From the IMG/VR virus record IMGVR_UViG_3300043447_000100, positions 96,001 to 160,000 of that record: 64,000 nucleotides of DNA; one strand, written 5' to 3'. Made by a program: the position numbers and the translations under genes. The notes below the pieces were generated by a model that did not search any database, was not told where the DNA came from, and saw only the letters and a list, made by a program, of their open reading frames with translations. This stretch comes from a virus (taxonomy: Duplodnaviria > Caudoviricetes). Shown here in pieces: positions 8,424 to 25,609 of this stretch. How positions within the stretch are numbered: the stretch's first letter is position 1; each line of letters starts with the position of its first letter.

Positions 8424-9164
8424 ATGTTTATTCAAAATAAGTATTATGGCATTTATACTAGATTGATTGCCAGAGCAACCTCACGACAGTTGACTACCAG
8501 AAACGAAGCAAAAAGCATTTTGGGCTACGTTGAGCGACATCATATTATTCCAGTTAGCATGGGTGGCAAAGACTCTTCCGATAATCTAGTTTTTCTAACT
8601 CCTAGAGAACATTTCGTTTGTCACATGCTTCTTGTTAGAATAACCTCAGGTCAGAATCATAAAAAAATGATTTTTGCCATGAATAAAATGTTAAATTCTA
8701 GTGATAATCAACAACGACATAACCCAACATCACATCAATATAAAAAAATGAGAGAAGATTTTTCTAAGCACATCAGTGAGATCAATTCCGGAAAACTAAA
8801 AGGACCACACTCTGAGGATAGAAGAAAAGCATTATCATTAGCTTCTAAAGGAGTTCCAAAATCAGAAACTGCGGTTTTGAATATGATTAAATCTTGGAAT
8901 AATGAGGAACGAAAACAAGCATTGATCGCAAGAAATAAGCAATCAAATACACTTCATAAACTTTGGGAGAATGAATCCTTCAGAAACAAAATGGGTTCGT
9001 CCGCAAGCAAGCGAATGAAGGAAAAATTATCTAATCCAGATGTACTTAAAACATCCGTGAATAAATTGAATAAAAGTGTTGAATGTGAGCATTGTCAGCA
9101 AACCATGAATGTGGGCAATTACATCAGATGGCATGGCGAAAAATGTAAAGAGAGAATTATATGA
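8424..9164 (+). mobile_element. Free-standing HNH homing endonuclease with NUMOD3-like repeats
   Basis: YVERHHIIP.SMGG.D...NLV.LT.REH..CH.LL, HSEDRRKALS, C-terminal CEHC...RWHGEKC. AT-rich relative to its neighbours. Confidence 0.85.
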
Positions 9165-12626: not shown

Positions 12627-13001
12627 ATGAGAGCACGTGAGTTTGTAAGCGAAGCAAAAGGCAGCATGGATAAAGTTGCTGCCAATGCTACTAAAGGTGC
12701 CTATAAGTTCAAAGACTCAGGCATCGACCGCGTTTACAACCTCAATCAAGTAATGAAGGCAGCTGGTATGGCCGATGGTCGTACTACTGCCCCAGTTTCT
12801 ATGGACCATGAGAGTTTCGCTGGCAAGAACAACATGGCATACCCATACACAGAAGAAGAGCACAATATGATGAAAGCCGCCTTCGCAACAGTAGGCGACA
12901 CCCAATCAATCGAACTCGTCAGAGATCATCGCTCACTAGAGGCAGACGACACTCAGAAAAAGTCGCCAAGTTTAGGCCGCCCTAAGCTAAAGTTCAAATA
13001 A
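12627..13001 (+). CDS. Putative internal head protein (MRAREFVSE)
   Basis: 124-aa ORF abutting the previous stop codon; CTS-like N-terminus. Confidence 0.6.
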   Translation: MRAREFVSEAKGSMDKVAANATKGAYKFKDSGIDRVYNLNQVMKAAGMADGRTTAPVSMDHESFAGKNNMAYPYTEEEHNMMKAAFATVGDTQSIELVRDHRSLEADDTQKKSPSLGRPKLKFK

Positions 13002-13870: not shown

Positions 13871-14149
13871 ATGACATTCGACCCATTCAAACAATCTCGT
13901 CTAATGAACGGCTTCAAGCAAGTTCAGGAATACAAAATGCCTGAGTCAACCGTAGATACTAGTATCGACGACCTCAAGCGATTAGCAGGCGTCAACAATA
14001 CAAGTTATGGCGAAGAAACAAGCGAATATGCTACAAACTTAGGTCAGATTCAGCGTGAGCGCAACATCAGACCAGGCACTGATGAATGGTTCAAGCTATG
14101 GTTCGCTAAGCCTCTGCTAACAGGTGAGCAGCCTTACACGAAGAAGTGA
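13871..14149 (+). CDS. Hypothetical late protein (LKRLAGV; IRPGTDEWFKLWF)
   Basis: 92-aa ORF whose ATG is 4 nt after the CTAAATA box. Confidence 0.7.
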   Translation: MTFDPFKQSRLMNGFKQVQEYKMPESTVDTSIDDLKRLAGVNNTSYGEETSEYATNLGQIQRERNIRPGTDEWFKLWFAKPLLTGEQPYTKK

Positions 14150-18027: not shown

Positions 18028-19534
18028 GCCTAAAACCAATCAAACCCTCAATAAAGAGCTAGACGAACTACTAAGTAGTCACGGCTTCGACGTAAAAGCC
18101 CTAACTTCGGGCGGCGACTCAGTGCCAGTACCTGAAGAAGCAGACATTTTTCAGTTTCACTTTCATAAAAACGGCAAAGACTACGGCACAGTCACAGTTA
18201 CAATCGACGGCGACTCTACAATGATCGTCTATTACGATGATAATGTCACCCGAAGCGGCAATAATGACACGGATGACATTAGTTGGACTGAGTTAGTAAA
18301 ACAACTCAAGAAGTTTGCTCTTGGCCACCAGATCAAGAACTTCAAACTCAAAGATACAGATAGATTGAGAACAGATATGGAACGCAGAGACCACGTAAGA
18401 AAGCAAGAGTCAACGCTAAACGAAGGCTACTACGGCAACAAGCATACCTCATACAACGATATTGCTGAAACAGTAAAGATTATTGTCAAGCACAACAAGA
18501 AATTAGAAGAAACAGACGCACGTTTCAGATACATCGACAAGATTTTCTTAGAAACCGCACAAGGCGAACGCTTACTAGTACCTACAACTAAGCCTAGTCA
18601 AGCACGTATGTTTGCTCGACACATCATTGAGGGCGGCGGCTACAAGGATGATCGCTGGTCACATCTACAAGAGATGTGTGAAGACATTGACAAGCTAGGT
18701 AAGTTTGTTCGTGCTACTAACGGTAAGCGTGAAATGTTTACTGAAAGCGCAGGTCGTATGATTGATGAAGCTATTGCTAAGTATCAAGAGCTACGTGAAC
18801 ACGCAAACAAGCTACAAACAAGCAGAGGCTACAACGCTTACTTTGAATCATATGAGCCAAGTGTAATTACAGAAACAGACGACACACTCAGTGAAGTATT
18901 CAAGACAAGTTCACTAGACGCACGTATTGAAAGCGCCCTACCTGTCTTACAAAAGTACGGCTTCAAGGCAGGCAAGTTAGAAGAAGCATCAATGTTTGCT
19001 GAATGGGCTGATGATGTCCTAAGTGAAGCACTAGATCCACTAACAAACGCACAAATTGAAGAACTAATCAAACTATTGAGTGATGAAGAGTTCAAAGTAG
19101 GCCCTAACGGCGAGAACGCTATCAAAGCACTTGATGATATTATTGAAAGCGGTGAGTTAGAAGAAGAATTGCGTGATGCGGCAGATCAAGATGCTGATCA
19201 TCCTGCTAGTCCTGTTATCATTAGTTGGATGGAACGTCAACCTGGTAGCAAATACAAAGCAGTACTAGCACAAGTTAGTAGTGATGAAGCAAACGCAGAT
19301 GCTAGTGAGAAGAGTAGTAACGAGCAACCTCAAAAAGTCAAGCCTAAGAAAAAGAAACCTCAACAAAAACCTGCTGATGCGGGAGGCCTACCTCCACTAC
19401 CACCGCTACCACCACTCGGCGGCCCAGCACCAGGCCCAGCACCAGGCCCAGCACCAGCTGGAGGCGGCCTACCTCCACTACCACCACTTGAAGAGAGTGA
19501 TGAACTAGAATCTTTATTGAAACTATTGAAATGA
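18026..19534 (+). CDS. Hypothetical putative head-associated protein with a proline-rich tail, 502 aa
   Basis: Internal LNE/G and LEE/A sites; C-terminal GGLPPLPPL and GPAP repeats. Confidence 0.65.
   Translation: MPKTNQTLNKELDELLSSHGFDVKALTSGGDSVPVPEEADIFQFHFHKNGKDYGTVTVTIDGDSTMIVYYDDNVTRSGNNDTDDISWTELVKQLKKFALGHQIKNFKLKDTDRLRTDMERRDHVRKQESTLNEGYYGNKHTSYNDIAETVKIIVKHNKKLEETDARFRYIDKIFLETAQGERLLVPTTKPSQARMFARHIIEGGGYKDDRWSHLQEMCEDIDKLGKFVRATNGKREMFTESAGRMIDEAIAKYQELREHANKLQTSRGYNAYFESYEPSVITETDDTLSEVFKTSSLDARIESALPVLQKYGFKAGKLEEASMFAEWADDVLSEALDPLTNAQIEELIKLLSDEEFKVGPNGENAIKALDDIIESGELEEELRDAADQDADHPASPVIISWMERQPGSKYKAVLAQVSSDEANADASEKSSNEQPQKVKPKKKKPQQKPADAGGLPPLPPLPPLGGPAPGPAPGPAPAGGGLPPLPPLEESDELESLLKLLK
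19421..19456 (+). repeat. Tandem repeat, 3 x GGCCCAGCACCA (GPAP), flanked by LPPLPPL repeats
   Basis: Read directly from the sequence. Confidence 0.9.
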
Positions 19535-21645
19535 CAGCACTTCTAGAAGGCGGCAACGTATTCAAAGCACCGGGTTGGTCTAAAGAAAACCCAGAAATGC
19601 TTACTGACAGAATCAGTAAGGCTGAGGTTGCGCCTACTGTTGCCTTCTTAAACAAACTAACAGGCATGAACTTAAAGGACAATCTATTAGGTTCAACCGG
19701 CATCGCTGAATCTAGCGGCGACATTGATATCGCTATTGATATGTCAACTTCTAAAGATGAGTTTGTTCAACTGCTTACTGACAAGGGTGTATCACCTGAT
19801 CACATTCGCAAAACAGGCGACAGTGTTCACTACATGAGTCCTATCTTTGCCGACAAGAAAAAGACTAACAGATTCGTTCAAGTCGATTTCATGTTTGTAC
19901 CAAGCGTAGAGTTTGCTAAGTGGTCAATGCGCACCGCACCTGAATCAACATACAAGGGCGTGTACTTACAGAAACTACGTGCTGACTTAACTAACACAGT
20001 CGCACCTAAAGACGATAGTGGCAAATCACTATGGAAGTGGAATCATTTCAAGGGCGTACTCAATCGTAGCGACGACACACCTGTGTTTCGTGAATTCGAT
20101 CCTGATGATATCGCTAAAGGCTTGCTAGGTCAGACTGCTACCCGCAGAGACTTAGAAAGCGTCGAGGGCATTATGCGCTTACTCAAAGATAATGCTAAGC
20201 GTAAGGATGTTATTGATACCTACAGACAAACCTTAGCTCGTGATAAGAAGGGTACTCAACTACCGCCTGACGAAGAATTAGATAGAGACTACTTAGAAGA
20301 GGCAACTTACAAAAGTAAGAATGACATAATTAATGATTTTATCAGACGAGGCAAACCAGCAGAGCAAGCGGCCGCGGCTTGGGAACGAGGTTACAGAGGT
20401 AAGAAGTCTAAGCAAACTAATCTCAAAGACATTAAGTTAAAGCCACCACAGAAACACTGGCAAGATGTTGATGAATCAGAACAAGTTACTGAACTCAAGA
20501 TTGGCGATGCTACTAAGCGTCTAATGCGTCAACAGAAGGATGATAAAAAGCAATCATCAGTAGGCCGCGAGTTTCAACATATTGAAGACTTGGTCTATAT
20601 CGAAGGTATCTCAGGTGTCAAACGAGCACTGTTACGCTTAGCACAAATCGCTAAGAATAGCAAACCGCTAGAAGTCAAGTGGGACGGCTCACCAGCAATC
20701 GTATTCGGCCGCGACTCTACCGGCAAGTTTCACTTCGGTGACAAATACGCTAAAGAAATGCTATCAACAGCCGAAGAAGTCTATGCGTATTACACTCGCA
20801 CAAGTCAAAGCGAAGGTCGTGTACAGTTTGCTAAAGAAATGGCACAACTATGCCCAGTGTACGAAGCCGCGACACCTGAAAACTTCACCGGATTCTTAGA
20901 AGCAGGCTTGATGTACAAGTCAACACCGCCTAAGAACGAACGCGGCGAATACTACTTCGCACCTAACACAGTCACTTACTTTGTTGACTCATCAAGCGAA
21001 CTAGGCAAGCGCATAGGCAACTCTATTTCAGGCGCAGCCGCAACCGGCACATTCGACGAGCTACCTGCCCTCGGCGGCCAACGCAGACCAGTAGGCGATA
21101 GCTACCGAGCAATCACTGGTTCACAAGTTGTAATCATCCCGCCTAAGTTTACTGATACGCAAACAGATATCAACCCTGACAAATTACGAACAATCAGTAG
21201 ATACGCGGCTTCAGTTGCCCAACCGCTAGAAGCATTTATCGCACCTGAACAAGGTTTATCAGATATCAGAGGCATCATCTACACATACGTCAACAGTCAA
21301 GTAGACGACCCTAGTAACTTAGACAAGTTAGGTCACAACTTCTTACAGTGGTTAGCAACTTCAAAAGTCAGCGCCGCAAAGCAAGAAAAAATCAAGCAAC
21401 GAGTACAAGAAAATACTCGAGGCTTCAACGCAGTGTTCAAACTTACACAAGCAATCATGCACATCAAAGATGATATCATCGGTAAGAAAGAGCATGAGAC
21501 ATTAGCAAGTTTAGGTATCAGAGCGCAACTAAAATCCGGCGAACACGGCGGCGAAGGCTTTGTACACGATCCTGATGAAGGTCAAGGCCCTACAAAATTA
21601 GTCAACCGCGGCACATTCACTCGTGCTAACAGATTGCGTGATTGA
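19531..21645 (+). CDS. Fusion of a Pol-beta-type nucleotidyltransferase and an ATP-dependent ligase-like (KxDG) domain
   Basis: N-terminal LGSTG...SGDIDIA...QVDFM. C-terminal VKWDGSPA (nt 20677), GEGFV (nt 21553) and TKLVNR, i.e. covalent nucleotidyltransferase motifs I, IV and V. Confidence 0.7.
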   Translation: MTALLEGGNVFKAPGWSKENPEMLTDRISKAEVAPTVAFLNKLTGMNLKDNLLGSTGIAESSGDIDIAIDMSTSKDEFVQLLTDKGVSPDHIRKTGDSVHYMSPIFADKKKTNRFVQVDFMFVPSVEFAKWSMRTAPESTYKGVYLQKLRADLTNTVAPKDDSGKSLWKWNHFKGVLNRSDDTPVFREFDPDDIAKGLLGQTATRRDLESVEGIMRLLKDNAKRKDVIDTYRQTLARDKKGTQLPPDEELDRDYLEEATYKSKNDIINDFIRRGKPAEQAAAAWERGYRGKKSKQTNLKDIKLKPPQKHWQDVDESEQVTELKIGDATKRLMRQQKDDKKQSSVGREFQHIEDLVYIEGISGVKRALLRLAQIAKNSKPLEVKWDGSPAIVFGRDSTGKFHFGDKYAKEMLSTAEEVYAYYTRTSQSEGRVQFAKEMAQLCPVYEAATPENFTGFLEAGLMYKSTPPKNERGEYYFAPNTVTYFVDSSSELGKRIGNSISGAAATGTFDELPALGGQRRPVGDSYRAITGSQVVIIPPKFTDTQTDINPDKLRTISRYAASVAQPLEAFIAPEQGLSDIRGIIYTYVNSQVDDPSNLDKLGHNFLQWLATSKVSAAKQEKIKQRVQENTRGFNAVFKLTQAIMHIKDDIIGKKEHETLASLGIRAQLKSGEHGGEGFVHDPDEGQGPTKLVNRGTFTRANRLRD

Positions 21646-21669
21646 CAAATCAAAAAAGCATGTTATAAT
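21642..21669 (+). promoter_or_regulatory. Sigma70-type promoter driving a leaderless GIY-YIG gene
   Basis: TTGACA-16 bp-TATAAT with TG extension; ATG 6 nt downstream. Confidence 0.75.
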
Positions 21670-21675
21670 AATAGT

Positions 21676-22293
21676 ATGAAAGCATATCTAATGATCAAAA
21701 CACATAGAGTTACTGGTTTGAAGTATCTATGTAAGACAGTGCAAGATCCTCTAATGTATAAGGGCTCCGGCGTTGATTGGTTAGCGCATTTAGAAAAATA
21801 TGGCGAAGACCATGATACTGAAATACTAAGAGTGTGCGAGAGTAAAGATGAACTTAGAACATACGGTCTGTATTATAGTGCTCTTTGGAATGTAGTATCA
21901 TCCGTTGATGATTACGGTAATAAAATATGGGCGAACAAGATACCGGAAAACGGTTCGGGCGGCATGACGAGTGAAACTGCGACTGAAGTTCAAAATCGTC
22001 CCGAAATAAAAAAGATGAAGATGGGAAAAAATAATCCATACCATCGTTCAAACAAAGAAAAACATAGCAAAGCCACCAGCGAAGCGATGAATAGAGAAGA
22101 AGTAAAAAAGAAAATATCAGGAGAGAATAGTCATCACTATGATCATACGATATATAAATTTATACACGATGATGATACTGCTATTGATTGCACATTCTTT
22201 GAACTTAGAAAATTGTATAAGTTACATCATGGTCATCTAAGATCGGTGATCAAGGGCGAACGAGCGACACACAAGGGATGGAGAGTGAAATGA
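21676..22293 (+). mobile_element. Free-standing GIY-YIG (Seg-like) homing endonuclease
   Basis: YLMIKTH..TGLKYLCKT....Y.GSG and W.N...E.G.GG, with NUMOD-like C-terminus. AT-rich. Confidence 0.75.
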
Positions 22294-22904
22294 AAATCAA
22301 CGAAGTACTCACTGAGAATGAAACACATGGTCGAAACAGGAAAGTAGTAGTTGGCTGGGGCAGAGGCATGGGTCACAAAGGACATTGTTATCTAGCACAG
22401 TCAGTGATTGAATACGCAGAAAAGACAGGCGCACAACCTATCTTCTATGTAAGCGAAACAGTCGGCGCAGATGATCCGCTAACAGCACAAGAAAAGTTAG
22501 CAATCTACAAAAAAGTATTCCCTAAACACAAAGCAATTTTCAAGAGTGCTAAAACAATCAACGCAGCCGCACAAGAAGTTTATGACGCAGGCTATACTGA
22601 AATGACTCTTGTTGTTGGTGCTGACCAAAAGAACGCTTTTCAATTCTTAGCACGACCAACTAAGTCAACTGGTCAACTACCGATTCCGTTTGATAGAGTA
22701 CAAGTTATCAGTCGTCAAGATACAGACAGTGAAACTTCACACTTAGAAGGACCACGTGCTACACCAATGCGTGATATCCTCAGAGATCCTAATGCTAGTG
22801 ACGAGGATAAGTTTGCTGTGTGGCGTGATGCTATGCCCGACGCACTCACTGATAAGCAAGTTCTAGCAACAATGCGACTAGCCGCCCGACGCTTAGGGCT
22901 CTAA
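22290..22904 (+). CDS. HxGH (cytidylyltransferase-like) nucleotidyltransferase
   Basis: VVGWGRGMGHKGH, DPL...EK, LVVGADQ and RATPMR (KMSKS-equivalent loop). Start ATG 22290 with GGAG RBS; N-terminus MKINEVLTE. Confidence 0.75.
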   Translation: MKINEVLTENETHGRNRKVVVGWGRGMGHKGHCYLAQSVIEYAEKTGAQPIFYVSETVGADDPLTAQEKLAIYKKVFPKHKAIFKSAKTINAAAQEVYDAGYTEMTLVVGADQKNAFQFLARPTKSTGQLPIPFDRVQVISRQDTDSETSHLEGPRATPMRDILRDPNASDEDKFAVWRDAMPDALTDKQVLATMRLAARRLGL

Positions 22905-22913
22905 TAAGGGCTA

Positions 22914-23549
22914 GTGATGCGTTCTGTCAAACTCGAACTCGACATTGACCTTGAGCCTTATGCTGACGCTCTTATAAACAGACCAAGCGAACATGGTCCA
23001 AAAAGCAATCCAATAACAAGACAGGAGTTGCTAGACTTAGTGCCACAACTTGCTAAGTTAGACCGACACTTAGCAGACTATGACTTGATGATTTCGTATC
23101 CTTCTGTTATGTCAATGAATCCTGGCACGTACGGCATAGTTCATGTTGATGGTGCGTTACCGTATGAAACGCACGACATGAAGTTCAACATACCAATCAA
23201 AAATGGAACATCAATGACCACACGATGGTACGACTTGACTGGTCTACCTTACGACAAGATAGATTGGAATTTTGACCGCCAAAATCTTTCGGAAGCAGAT
23301 TTTTGGTTCTTATCAAATGCTGACTTGCTCGTAAACAACCATTGTGTTGAGACACTACTACTAGACGGCCCACATCTGTTCTATAGTGGTGAACCACACA
23401 ACGTAGACGGCAGACACTCCAAAGTTGTTCGATCCATTCTTGGTATGAACATCAAACACAAACCCACGGACACGTTCCTTCGTTGGGCACAAAAGGATTT
23501 GGTCATCAAAGCAGTTGCTGACTACAATCAATCCTTCCAAAATAGTTGA
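22914..23549 (+). CDS. Putative 2OG-Fe(II) oxygenase / cupin-like protein
   Basis: IVHVDG (HxD), FNIPI, PHNV (distal His) and RSIL (Arg). Confidence 0.55.
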   Translation: MMRSVKLELDIDLEPYADALINRPSEHGPKSNPITRQELLDLVPQLAKLDRHLADYDLMISYPSVMSMNPGTYGIVHVDGALPYETHDMKFNIPIKNGTSMTTRWYDLTGLPYDKIDWNFDRQNLSEADFWFLSNADLLVNNHCVETLLLDGPHLFYSGEPHNVDGRHSKVVRSILGMNIKHKPTDTFLRWAQKDLVIKAVADYNQSFQNS

Positions 23550-23573
23550 CTTCTTAGCGCAATCAGCTATAAT
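23546..23573 (+). promoter_or_regulatory. Sigma70-type promoter P1 upstream of gp32
   Basis: CCAAAATAG-TTGACT-16 bp-TATAAT. Confidence 0.7.
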
Positions 23574-23641
23574 AACTACTATATCAATGAATGATCTTCA
23601 TTGGTATCACTAAGACAAACAGCAATTGGATGTTTTAGTGA

Positions 23642-23669
23642 TTGACAATAGTAGACAGTATGTTATACT
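23642..23669 (+). promoter_or_regulatory. Sigma70-type promoter P2 upstream of gp32
   Basis: TTGACA-16 bp-TATACT with TG extension. Confidence 0.75.
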
Positions 23670-23751
23670 TCTTCTATGTCACGTATGAATCCTTCATACT
23701 ACTACCCTTAGACTTAGTTTATCAGACACTTAAAATTTGAAAGGAAATAAA

Positions 23752-24765
23752 ATGTCTTTAGCAGCTATCCGCGCCAAATTGGCCGCACAAGAAAATCGTG
23801 GTCAGTCACAACAAACTCAAGCAAGTGACAACATCATCTATCCTCACTGGAACATGCCAGAAGGAACCACAGCAAATATCCGCTTCTTACCTGATGCTGA
23901 TCCAAACAACTCATTCTTCTGGATTGAGCGTAACATGATCAAGTTGCCATTCATTGGCGCAAAAGGTATCAACGCAGATAAAGAATACATTGTACAAGTA
24001 CCATGCGTAGAAATGTATGGCGACAACTGCCCAATCTTGGCAGAAGTTCGTACTTGGTACAAAGACGAATCTCTCAAAGAGATGGCTAACAAATACTGGA
24101 AGAAGCGTACATACTTGTTCCAAGGTTTCGTTCGCTCAAACCCAATCGCAGACGACAAGCAACCTGAGAATCCTATCCGTCGTTTTGTTATCTCTCCTCA
24201 AATCTTCCAAGTCATCAAGTCATCATTGATGGACCCTGAGATTGAAGAATTGCCAACAGACGCACTACGCGGTCTAGACTTCCGCATTGTTAAAACAAGC
24301 AAAGGCGGTTATGCTGACTACTCAACTTCAGGTTGGGCTCGTAAAGAATCTGCTCTAACAACAGAAGAACAAGAAATCATTTCTAAGTTCGGCTTGTTCA
24401 ACTTGAGTGAATTCTTGCCTAAGAAGCCAAGCGAAAGCGAATTGAAAATCATCAAAGAAATGTTTGAAGCATCAGTCGATGGTCGTCCTTATGACCTAGA
24501 CAAGTGGGGCGCATACTACAAGCCATGGGGCTTAGACGCTAAGCAAACCGGCGACGGCGAATCAATCTCCGTACCAGTTTCACGCCCAGCACCAGTTGCT
24601 CAAACCACACCAGCTCCTGTAGCAGAAACCGCTCCTTGGGAAGCAGACGCCGCTGAAGCCGCTGAGTCTATCAAACCAGCCGCACCAGCAGCCGAAGCTC
24701 CTAAGACAAGCGATAAGGCAAACGACATCCTAGCGATGATTCGTAGCCGTCAAAAAGCAGTTTAA
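23752..24765 (+). CDS. Single-stranded DNA-binding protein (gp32-like)
   Basis: IRFLPD, C..M.G..CPI, KYWKKR.Y, GLDF...KT.KGGYADYSTS and an Ala/Pro linker. ATG 23752 follows AAGGA. Confidence 0.92.
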   Translation: MSLAAIRAKLAAQENRGQSQQTQASDNIIYPHWNMPEGTTANIRFLPDADPNNSFFWIERNMIKLPFIGAKGINADKEYIVQVPCVEMYGDNCPILAEVRTWYKDESLKEMANKYWKKRTYLFQGFVRSNPIADDKQPENPIRRFVISPQIFQVIKSSLMDPEIEELPTDALRGLDFRIVKTSKGGYADYSTSGWARKESALTTEEQEIISKFGLFNLSEFLPKKPSESELKIIKEMFEASVDGRPYDLDKWGAYYKPWGLDAKQTGDGESISVPVSRPAPVAQTTPAPVAETAPWEADAAEAAESIKPAAPAAEAPKTSDKANDILAMIRSRQKAV

Positions 24766-24824: not shown

Positions 24825-25382
24825 ATGAAAATCAAAGCTGTCGTCATTAAGTGGCGAACACCATTCAGTTGTAGTTTGATGGAAAGCATCATGTCTTCTG
24901 AGGTGGAAACAACTTTGTCTGATTGGATAAAAAATACGAATAATAACGAATACTTGATGATAGGCGGCGCCGTTGTAGGTTACTACACTAAGCCAAGAAT
25001 GACGCAAGACATAGATGTGTTGTATCGTTTATCTTCATCGATACCTAATGAAGTTGAAGGTTTCAAACATCATCGTGAACACGCATTTGAGCATCAACAA
25101 ACGGGTGTAGAAGTTGAAACGCTAGATTCTGAATTTCTCGGTATATCCCAAGATTTGGTAGAACAGGTATTCGACAATTCAAGTATCGCGGATGGTGTTA
25201 GAATACCTAGTCCCTCCGGAATCGTTGCGTTAAAAGTATGTCGTGCCGATCTTCAAGATATTGCTGATATTCACGCTGTTGCTCAAATACATGAAATAGA
25301 TTTGACTGAATGGAATTTAGATGAAAATAAAATTAAGTTCGTCGAAGAAAGATTAGGGTACTCACTCAGGAGAAGAATATGA
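24825..25382 (+). CDS. AbiEii/DUF1814-like nucleotidyltransferase
   Basis: LMIGG.VV.YY..PR.T.DID and ALK..R...QD.ADI. AT-rich insertion. Confidence 0.7.
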   Translation: MKIKAVVIKWRTPFSCSLMESIMSSEVETTLSDWIKNTNNNEYLMIGGAVVGYYTKPRMTQDIDVLYRLSSSIPNEVEGFKHHREHAFEHQQTGVEVETLDSEFLGISQDLVEQVFDNSSIADGVRIPSPSGIVALKVCRADLQDIADIHAVAQIHEIDLTEWNLDENKIKFVEERLGYSLRRRI

Positions 25383-25609
25383 CATTACCTGACGAGCGTT
25401 ATCGCTCATTAAAACAAGCAAAGAAATTGCTAGAAGAACTGGTAGACCCTGGAAAAACACCACGTGTGCCAGCAGTTGTCCGCGAACGAGCACGAGGAGT
25501 TCTACGACACTTTCCTAGCGATTATGAATTTGAAGTAATGGCTTCTAATTGTCCAAACTTACTTGACACTAAGCCGTTCTCAGTTTACAATACTACTATC
25601 AACAAATAA
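25379..25609 (+). CDS. Small conserved protein (BPSL0761-like)
   Basis: MTLPDER.R ... PRVP..VR.RA...LRHFP signature. Confidence 0.6.
   Translation: MTLPDERYRSLKQAKKLLEELVDPGKTPRVPAVVRERARGVLRHFPSDYEFEVMASNCPNLLDTKPFSVYNTTINK

Follow-up and report, generated by a model that had tools for sequence, protein, structure and literature searches.

The locus described here lies in a 64,000-nucleotide stretch of phage DNA (referred to as the window), positions 96,001 to 160,000 of the IMG/VR virus record IMGVR_UViG_3300043447_000100. The record is 183.7 kb long and estimated to be 52% complete; its terminase shares ~50% identity with the terminases of the jumbo phages PA5oct, Atu_ph07, and Phosso, and the phage collection that we searched holds no near-identical DNA. 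Three open reading frames (ORFs) of 704, 205, and 208 amino acids (aa), reported in an earlier note on this DNA, are present on the forward strand (Table 1). The first encodes a domain resembling the family-X polymerases (PolX), a charged linker, and a ligase-like domain of the Pfam family DUF6267; the second is a homing endonuclease gene, as had been proposed; and the third encodes a nucleotidyltransferase with an HxGH motif. The 208-aa ORF is listed as 22278-22904, and its most likely start is the ATG at position 22290, which overlaps the endonuclease stop codon (ATGA) and has GGAG 5 to 6 nt upstream, giving a ~204-aa protein. We refer to the PolX-like, ligase-like, and HxGH domains together as the module.

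Comparison with close relatives shows that a single gene once encoded the whole module. A metagenomic protein of 896 aa (P0001; 99% identity) runs unbroken through both the 704-aa and the 208-aa ORFs, with the 704-aa ORF corresponding end to end to its residues 1 to 703, and database homologues of the 704-aa ORF are often ~900 aa long. The contig encoding P0001 (L001) is 98.3% identical in DNA sequence to the window up to position 21641 (L001 2655-4770) and 97.1% identical from 22340 on, with ~700 bp of the window standing in place of 15 bp of L001. The inserted piece carries, in order, a stop codon for the upstream half, a promoter, and the 205-aa ORF. This promoter is the best site between positions 14000 and 26000, and its sequence is missing from the uninterrupted L001 allele; the endonuclease gene is missing from the 98 to 99% identical alleles L001 and L002. 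Thus, a homing endonuclease gene split one ancestral three-domain gene at the junction of domains 2 and 3, and the enzyme is consequently made as a 704-aa PolX-ligase protein and a separate ~204-aa HxGH protein. The endonuclease-mediated split, together with its matching uninterrupted allele, is what is specific to this window.

The 205-aa product is assigned from homologues with 60 to 68% identity across its N-terminal half that carry NUMOD3 (PF07460), from a Y-L-M...Y-L-C pair at the spacing expected for GIY-YIG enzymes, and from a weak SegE_GIY-YIG match that lies below threshold (E = 0.03; 15 bits, versus a cutoff of 25). Directly downstream of the insert, a 60-nt tract encoding VVGWGRGMGHKGH has 13 mismatches relative to the endonuclease-free allele, versus 0 to 2 per 60 nt further downstream; almost all of these differences are synonymous, with two amino acid changes only. 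Judged from this pattern of substitutions, the tract is probably an altered endonuclease recognition site or a co-conversion tract. A group I intron around the endonuclease ORF was considered and rejected: no Rfam match was found at E ≤ 1 in 19000-24000, the upstream ORF is terminated by a stop codon, and the downstream ORF has its own Shine-Dalgarno sequence and ATG.

Table 1. Features of the split module and the inserted endonuclease gene (window positions)
Feature	Position	Strand	Basis or remark
704-aa ORF (PolX-like domain, linker, DUF6267 domain)	19531..21645	+	First two thirds of ancestral gene
Minimal family-X (Pol beta-like) polymerase domain, residues 1-245, palm and thumb (predicted)	19531..20265	+	Structure model, Foldseek, VIA
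Catalytic carboxylates D64, D66, D119	19720-22, 19726-28, 19885-87	+	
Charged variable linker, residues ~246-345	20266..20565	+	pLDDT, alignment
Ligase-fold covalent nucleotidyltransferase domain, Pfam DUF6267, residues ~346-704 (predicted)	20566..21642	+	
Motif I, K383-W-D-G	20677-20688	+	
Motif IV, E675-G	21553-21558	+	
Motif V, K689	21595-21597	+	
Sigma-70-type promoter TTGACA, 16-nt spacer, TG-TATAAT	21642..21669	+	12/12 matches
Free-standing homing endonuclease gene, 205 aa, GIY-YIG-like N-terminal half	21676..22293	+	
HxGH (HIGH-motif, cytidylyltransferase/NMNAT-like) nucleotidyltransferase	22290..22904	+	Last third of ancestral gene
Tract of clustered differences	22340..22399	+	Comparison with endonuclease-free allele
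HxGH motif	22374-22385	+	

Related loci show both intact and divided forms. All three domains are fused in one gene in L017 as in L001, an unrelated 795-aa gene lies between the PolX-ligase and HxGH genes in L014 and L015, and L016 is split as PolX and ligase-HxGH; the division at a domain linker seen in the window is thus also used by natural fission in other phages (L014 and L016). Large inserts are found at the module borders, namely a 680-aa coiled-coil/TMP_3-like protein (L001 621-2663) and the 795-aa protein (L014 2210-4594). The two inserts are mutually unrelated, and neither is present in the genome of the window. The module locus is a hotspot of gene gain.

The AlphaFold2 model of the PolX-like domain has a predicted local distance difference test (pLDDT) score of 91.8. 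Foldseek finds 134 PDB matches to it at E < 1e-3, and among the matches listed (50 of the 134) all are Pol beta. A VIA structure search, which is independent of Foldseek, has family-X polymerases in each of its first nine places (Z 7.4 to 8.8 over 156 to 181 residues). Among them are Pol beta (Z 8.8 over 161 residues) and African swine fever virus (ASFV) Pol X (Z 8.4; 158 of its 176 residues align), together with TdT, Pol lambda, Pol mu, and the Thermus PolX and Leishmania Pol beta enzymes. Of the other Pol beta-superfamily enzymes, terminal uridylyltransferases, CD-NTases, the CCA-adding enzyme, and MenT align only across the ~88-residue palm, with Z ≤ 6.5. The GS...DxD...D signature that had been read as Pol beta type holds up in an alignment of 25 homologues, in which G54 (with S55, the GS motif), S62-G63-D64, D66, and D119 are invariant; the local motif GS..AESSGD.D is similar to that of Pol beta. 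The 8-kDa deoxyribose phosphate (dRP)-lyase and fingers (helix-hairpin-helix) domains of canonical Pol beta are not present, and the protein starts ~25 residues before the palm, as minimal ASFV Pol X does. Curated PolX models (Pfam and NCBIfam) give no match to the domain at E ≤ 0.1, and a profile search of it against the PDB was negative. Neither direct nor profile searches of the PDB gave a meaningful sequence match for any of the three domains, and NCBIfam gave none. Domain 1 is most aptly called a minimal PolX-like polymerase, similar in size to ASFV Pol X.

The second domain matches Pfam PF19782 (DUF6267; E = 9.9e-26), a family for which a literature search (DUF6267 or PF19782) returned no papers. 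Its AlphaFold2 model has a pLDDT of 95.3, and the ligase-type KWDG...EG...K arrangement noted previously is well conserved: among the 25 homologues K383, D385-G386, and K689 are invariant, W384 is nearly so (≥90%), and E675-G676, 14 residues from K689, is nearly invariant, and invariant in the domain alignment. Residues F476/P478/N479 and a G-[DE]-L-[LM]-Y strand are also conserved; motifs III and IIIa were assigned by strand order, and the spacing of the last two motifs is similar to that of motifs IV and V in T4 Rnl1. A wide VIA search returned covalent nucleotidyltransferases (RNA and DNA ligases and capping enzymes) in all of the top 31 rows except for snurportin, which has the same fold, with Z scores from 8.1 to 4.7, a middling range by the tool's own scale. 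The highest are those of NgrRnl of Naegleria (8.1), REL1 (7.3), T4 Rnl2 (7.1), and a Prochlorococcus DNA ligase (7.0), followed by Trl1 (6.6), T4 Rnl1 (6.3), many DNA ligases (5 to 6), and capping enzymes (4.2 to 5.9). Foldseek matches to the PDB are weak (best E = 0.07), though enriched for RNA and DNA ligases, and a BFVD search ranks members of the family, among them a 591-aa ligase-HxGH fusion of S-PM2, ahead of viral RNA ligases. The model shows a short C-terminal helix and no oligonucleotide-binding (OB)-fold domain; where known ligases have OB or other accessory domains, it has a helical insertion of ~110 residues, located between motifs IIIa and IV. The best explanation of the modeled fold and motifs is that domain 2 is a very divergent member of the lysine-nucleotidyl (KxDG) polynucleotide ligase superfamily.

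In two divergent DUF6267 homologues (P0039 and P0172), inteins are inserted directly after KWDG. Inteins favor sites of this kind in nucleic acid enzymes, and these insertions together with the endonuclease gene of the window indicate that this gene family is a recurrent target of selfish elements.

The third domain matches two PHROGs families annotated as cytidyltransferases (phrog_3041, E = 2.5e-21; phrog_395, E = 8e-9), and viral PF01467 families make up 28 of the 30 ESM Atlas clusters nearest to it. Homologous genes named cytidyltransferase/NMNAT are present in 352 phage records, nearly all of them cyanomyoviruses. The earlier identification of an HxGH nucleotidyltransferase is upheld by 30 homologues of the 208-aa ORF in which H33-x-G35-H36 is invariant, position 34 being K, R, S, or Q. 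G28, R29, G30, M31, and G32 are invariant too, and both the extended motif W27-G-R-G-M-G-H33-x-G-H36 and a G-P-R-A-T-P-M-R motif are invariant or nearly so. PF01467 matches 9 of 40 long homologues, and the protein of the window itself falls below PF01467 recognition at E ≤ 0.1. A specific identity as NMNAT is backed by database names only, cyanophage homologues being labeled NMNAT or cytidyltransferase and one metagenome homologue nicotinic acid mononucleotide (NaMN) adenylyltransferase. Relationship to NMNATs and cytidylyltransferases appears to be the best explanation of these sequence similarities.

The module is widespread. A profile search of 1.84 billion representatives gave 3,688 clusters (50% identity) at E ≤ 1e-3, and DUF6267 homologues are present in 468 phage records. 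They occur in nearly all T4-like cyanophages and in thousands of uncultured marine and freshwater phages. Among 381 proteins whose architectures we compared, 113 are PolX-ligase, 71 ligase alone, 39 ligase-HxGH, 15 PolX-ligase-HxGH, and 8 ligase-PolX; HxGH-PolX-ligase and ligase-PolX-HxGH forms exist too. Five different fused orders of the three domains are seen. At least 20 further PolX-ligase proteins missed by the HxGH hidden Markov model have a canonical GxFKPxHxGH tail at the same position, and in all at least 75 proteins in the sample contain, in one of several orders, an HxGH domain covalently fused with the ligase-like domain. The cytidyltransferase gene of S-CAM4 and that of S-SZBM1 lie immediately 3' of the ligase-like gene, and in S-PM2 the two are fused. 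Additional domains occur once each (an NT5C/HAD phosphatase, DUF2608, an Acb1-like 2H phosphoesterase, and an AAA ATPase). The earlier note had called for a search for co-occurrence and fusion across phages, and had supposed that three unrelated nucleotidyl-transfer folds are functionally linked here; the recurrent fusions sustain that view, and because the domains are normally part of one polypeptide, joined in many orders, the link is stronger than had been supposed.

The linker between the PolX-like and ligase-like domains has pLDDT values of 61 to 66 at residues 250 to 275. It varies in both length and sequence and is mostly deleted in P0003, and in a clade with ~29% identity the envelopes of the two domains abut.

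Upstream of the module are tail-tube genes, a fiber-like protein gene, the terminase large subunit gene, and a gene for a 502-aa virion structural protein homologue, with the terminase two genes upstream of the 704-aa ORF. Downstream are genes for a gp32-type single-stranded DNA-binding protein (SSB), UvsX, and UvsY, methyltransferase-like and glucosyltransferase-like genes, and a helicase gene; a 211-aa downstream ORF has no match in the phage collection or Pfam. The earlier placement of the module after terminase is therefore correct, but it is not inside a head-gene block; it sits at the border between a packaging and structural block and an SSB/UvsX/UvsY/helicase replication and recombination block. 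SSB, UvsX, and UvsY are the neighbors in the window and its relatives, and helicase, MazG, primase, and ribonucleotide reductase genes are the neighbors in cyanophages. The 502-aa ORF was considered as a part of the module and rejected, as its product is conserved among jumbo phages like PA5oct and Rak2, where it is a virion structural protein, and is also unrelated to the neighbors of the module in cyanophages. The start of the 704-aa gene overlaps the end of this virion protein gene (ATGA), and a promoter scan found no strong sigma-70-type promoter of its own. The T4 late promoter TATAAATA is not enriched in the window (2 observed versus 2.9 expected).

Several other features of this genome are noteworthy. 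Near-consensus sigma-70 promoters (11/12) are located at window 23546-23669 and 25563-25591, before the SSB and UvsX genes, and there is no comparable site before the terminase/virion protein/PolX-ligase run, which suggests that differing transcription classes flank the module. A 185-aa DUF6036/AbiEii-like nucleotidyltransferase gene (Pfam E = 2.6e-5; window 24825-25382) lies between SSB and UvsX and overlaps a 76-aa ORF (MTLPDERYR...; window 25379-25609). The 76-aa ORF is kept between SSB and UvsX in L014 to L017 and the nucleotidyltransferase is missing there, so the DUF6036/AbiEii-like gene looks like an insertion in the window; it is possibly half of a toxin-antitoxin-like pair. A second homing endonuclease gene (window 8424-9164; phrog_655, E = 8.8e-49, with HNH-type relatives) lies between tail-tube-like genes, and a NUMOD3-bearing ORF is found near an RNA ligase gene of the same record (L003 2730-3251); the genome is rich in mobile endonucleases. 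The RNA ligase is of Rnl5 type (356 aa, PHA02142 OB domain plus PF09414; G000:C1:176139-179639, L003), and its gene is directly 3' of an HD_4 phosphohydrolase gene. These two proteins may be a separate RNA repair pair of the phage.

We consider it probable that the module is a fill-and-seal enzyme for repair or maturation of nicked or gapped nucleic acid, most likely phage DNA. From the folds, together with conservation of the catalytic residues, the division of the gene, and its repeated domain fusions, we infer gap filling and sealing as follows. The PolX-like domain would fill short gaps, and the DUF6267 ligase domain would seal the nick left after filling, with phage DNA in replication, recombination, or repair as the most likely substrate; ribonucleotide patches could be present in the substrate because the ligase fold is closest to those of nick-sealing RNA ligases. 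The HxGH domain could be an accessory adenylyltransferase that makes or recycles the nucleotide cofactor of the ligase (nicotinamide mononucleotide [NMN] plus ATP to NAD+), with NAD+ regenerated from the NMN released on ligase adenylylation; alternatively, it might act on 5'-adenylylated ends. The DNA metabolism genes beside the module, in the window and in cyanophages, and the end-healing-type domains of some homologues, the NT5C/HAD phosphatase and the Acb1-like 2H phosphoesterase, are counted in favor of repair. The gp30 ligase is among the T4 genes missing from one or more marine cyanophages (PMC2993671), and three complete cyanomyovirus genomes each have one DUF6267 gene and no PF01068, PF01653, or PF09414 ligase.

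A number of observations weigh against this interpretation. The ligase assignment depends on middling structural scores (Z 5 to 8; Foldseek E ≥ 0.07 versus PDB) and on motifs; sequence-profile searches with the DUF6267 domain match no PDB ligase, and hhalign of the DUF6267 profile with the phage's own Rnl5-type ligase gives a probability of 0.1, so that the assignment rests on fold and motifs. Without an OB fold, and with RNA ligases rather than DNA ligases as the nearest folds, the substrate may be RNA. Sequence searches of the HxGH domain against solved structures, including NMNATs, gave no match, and most of 80 IMG/VR PolX-ligase loci in the ~29%-identity clade have no HxGH gene in their flanks, which makes HxGH a frequent but non-obligatory partner. 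Finally, neither uracil-DNA glycosylase nor Nfo-type or Xth-type apurinic/apyrimidinic (AP) endonucleases were found in the 184-kb record. No ATP-dependent or NAD+-dependent DNA ligases were found there either, and PF01068 (ATP-dependent DNA ligase) finds nothing in the genome; with the record only 52% complete, these absences are weak evidence.

If RNA were the substrate, the module might be a kit for repair of tRNAs or other RNAs attacked by anticodon nucleases or ribotoxins, with the Pol beta-like domain restoring 3' nucleotides and DUF6267 acting as an RNA ligase. The best structural matches of DUF6267 are indeed RNA ligases (NgrRnl, REL1, Rnl2, Trl1, and Rnl1 in the PDB, and viral RNA ligases in BFVD), the lack of an OB domain is in keeping with this, and the homologues with a 2H (Acb1-like) phosphoesterase or a HAD phosphatase recall the healing modules of Trl1 and Pnkp. 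There is also a precedent in RlaP, a ligase-associated Pol beta nucleotidyltransferase able to repair RNA 3' ends (PMC12776372). However, the similarity of the N-terminal domain to family-X DNA polymerases extends through palm and thumb (156 to 181 residues), and that to RNA-specific Pol beta nucleotidyltransferases is confined to the ~88-residue palm, no polynucleotide kinase fusion is seen anywhere in the sample, and the neighbors of the module are DNA replication and recombination genes. The Rnl5-type RNA ligase beside an HD phosphohydrolase already in the genome is mildly against a second RNA repair system, and overall we regard RNA repair as unlikely. It is very unlikely that the HxGH protein is a plain phage NMNAT for NAD+ supply or for countering NAD+-depleting defenses, with only an incidental link to the other domains. 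Its cyanophage and metagenome homologues do carry NMNAT, cytidyltransferase, or NaMN adenylyltransferase labels, and phages are known to have NAD+ reconstitution pathways (cited in PMC12801897); nonetheless, at least 75 covalent HxGH-ligase fusions in several orders, and the single gene that here included PolX-ligase, argue for a functional connection, and no Nampt-type partner is seen adjoining the HxGH gene.

A further proposal, made in the earlier note, is that the proteins are loaded into the prohead by capsid-targeting leaders, trimmed and cut apart by a gp21-type protease, and injected to act before transcription. We think that this is improbable, and it may hold beside a role in repair. 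The T4 precedent is that internal proteins are loaded through a ~10-residue capsid-targeting sequence (CTS), MKTYQEFIAE, that is then cleaved off (PMC8442874, PMC3012670). Among the genes of this phage is one for a prohead protease of T4 gp21 type (PF03420, E = 5.8e-27), and the N terminus of the HxGH ORF, MKINEVLTE, fits a CTS-like pattern, defined as M-x(1-4)-[DEQ]-h-h-x-E at the N terminus. Among stand-alone homologues, 38% of the HxGH and 35% of the ligase proteins show the pattern, versus 1.7% of 646 other ORFs at the same loci, and 6 of the 11 control matches are small ORFs directly downstream of the module. HxGH homologues are reported in the virion proteomes of S-CREM2 (ORF154, three peptides; PMC10665884) and S-SZBM1 (_140, two peptides; PMC9146016), and the overlap of the 704-aa gene with a virion structural protein gene, together with its lack of a strong promoter, also fits virion delivery. 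However, these peptide counts are low and the authors of both proteomes warn of carryover (PMC10665884, PMC9146016), the ligase homologues S-SZBM1 _141 and S-CREM2 gp87 are not in those virion lists, and in S-CAM4 and S-SZBM1 replication genes surround the ligase-HxGH pair. Another possibility is that the leader serves as a docking helix to rejoin split subunits, which would also explain its presence on stand-alone forms only.

Of the two (L/I)-x-E leaders proposed, therefore, that of the HxGH ORF retains support through the enriched pattern, but LLE/GG of the 704-aa protein does not. Proteins with PolX first match the CTS-like pattern at the control rate (1.9%), and the [LI]-x-E-G-G-N motif is nearly invariant and is kept even where the PolX-like domain is internal, showing that it belongs to the domain rather than to a leader; a plain [LI]-x-E occurs within the first 10 residues of 16% of 130 ORFs of this genome. 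The linker motifs LEE/A, VDE/S, and VTE/L, previously read as protease sites, fare no better: the stretch with VDE/S is hypervariable or deleted in close relatives, though L-E-E and V-[TN]-E-L at its ends are kept, and since the sites are unconserved and many relatives have no linker at all, the idea that the domains are cut apart by the prohead protease finds no support. Packaging in virions is thus left with the HxGH leader, the protease gene, and low-level peptides on its side, and the unlisted ligase homologue and, in S-CAM4 and S-SZBM1, the replication-gene surroundings of the ligase-HxGH pair against it; delivery of at least the HxGH subunit appears doubtful, and separation of the domains by protease less likely still. 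CTS-like starts are also seen in a 124-aa ORF, MRAREFVSEAKG... (window 12627-13001), and a 383-aa ORF, MKISDLLNEDKK... (G000:C1:175218-176369; L013 219-1370), neither with a Pfam match. By N-terminal sequence these are candidates for carrying the same signal as the HxGH ORF.

Returning to the fill-and-seal interpretation, a ligase role for DUF6267 would account for a missing part of replication and repair in some of the ocean's most abundant viruses, and DUF6267 would be a new branch of the ligase superfamily, useful for enzyme technology; its association with a mini-PolX and an NMNAT-like enzyme would raise the idea of cofactor-coupled ligation. A more ambitious reading combines these elements: DUF6267 would be a new polynucleotide ligase family and the long-missing ligase of T4-like cyanophages and of numerous other phages from the sea, supplied with cofactor or having it recycled by the fused or neighboring NMNAT-like domain, often joined to a mini-PolX, and with the leader-bearing stand-alone subunits delivered in virions. 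As a whole this is rather unlikely, and, if true, it would make sealing independent of the NAD+ or ATP state of the host. The window itself offers a clear case in nature where a homing endonuclease has divided the gene for a multidomain enzyme at a linker, its probable target lying on the HxGH motif.

The earlier view that no characterized pathway has this combination is too strong, given the known repair pairs and fusions of PolX with ligase; the module is a variant of viral PolX-ligase repair enzymes built around an uncharacterized ligase family. PgVPolX of Phaeocystis globosa virus 16T, an enzyme of viral base excision repair, consists of a Pol beta core joined with an NAD+-dependent ligase and has gap-filling, dRP lyase, and sealing activities (PMC5537341), and the PolX and ligase of phage YerA41 complete base excision repair in vitro (PMC13697223). 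PgVPolX has a LigA-type NAD+-dependent ligase and dRP/AP lyase activity, whereas in the window DUF6267 has no OB or LigA domains, the polymerase has no 8-kDa domain, and an HxGH domain is added. ASFV Pol X (174 aa) is similarly a minimal palm-plus-thumb family-X polymerase that partners a viral ligase on gapped DNA, but there the genes are separate, the virus is eukaryotic, the DNA ligase is a canonical ATP-dependent one, and a viral AP endonuclease is present, of which none was found here. Bacterial LigD combines polymerase, ligase, and phosphoesterase, with a polymerase that prefers ribonucleoside triphosphates and a ligase that prefers a 3'-ribonucleotide. It resembles the module as a multidomain enzyme that fills, heals, and seals, and provides a precedent for an RNA ligase-like sealing domain acting on DNA breaks; it differs in its primase-type (AEP) polymerase fold, the OB domain of its ligase, and the absence of an HxGH domain. 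The best structural matches of DUF6267, Rnl5 (NgrRnl/DraRnl), T4 Rnl2, and Trypanosoma brucei REL1, have the KxDG, EG, and K motifs in common with it, but there is no detectable sequence-profile similarity, and DUF6267 has a helical insertion and lacks their N- or C-terminal accessory domains. The split also has counterparts, as T4-like phages have genes divided by free-standing homing endonucleases, such as nrdA of Aeh1 by mobE. As in Aeh1, the endonuclease gene, with a promoter of its own, separates the two halves, each an intact ORF, of an enzyme gene that relatives have undivided; unlike Aeh1, a different enzyme gene is involved, and it is cut exactly at a domain linker.

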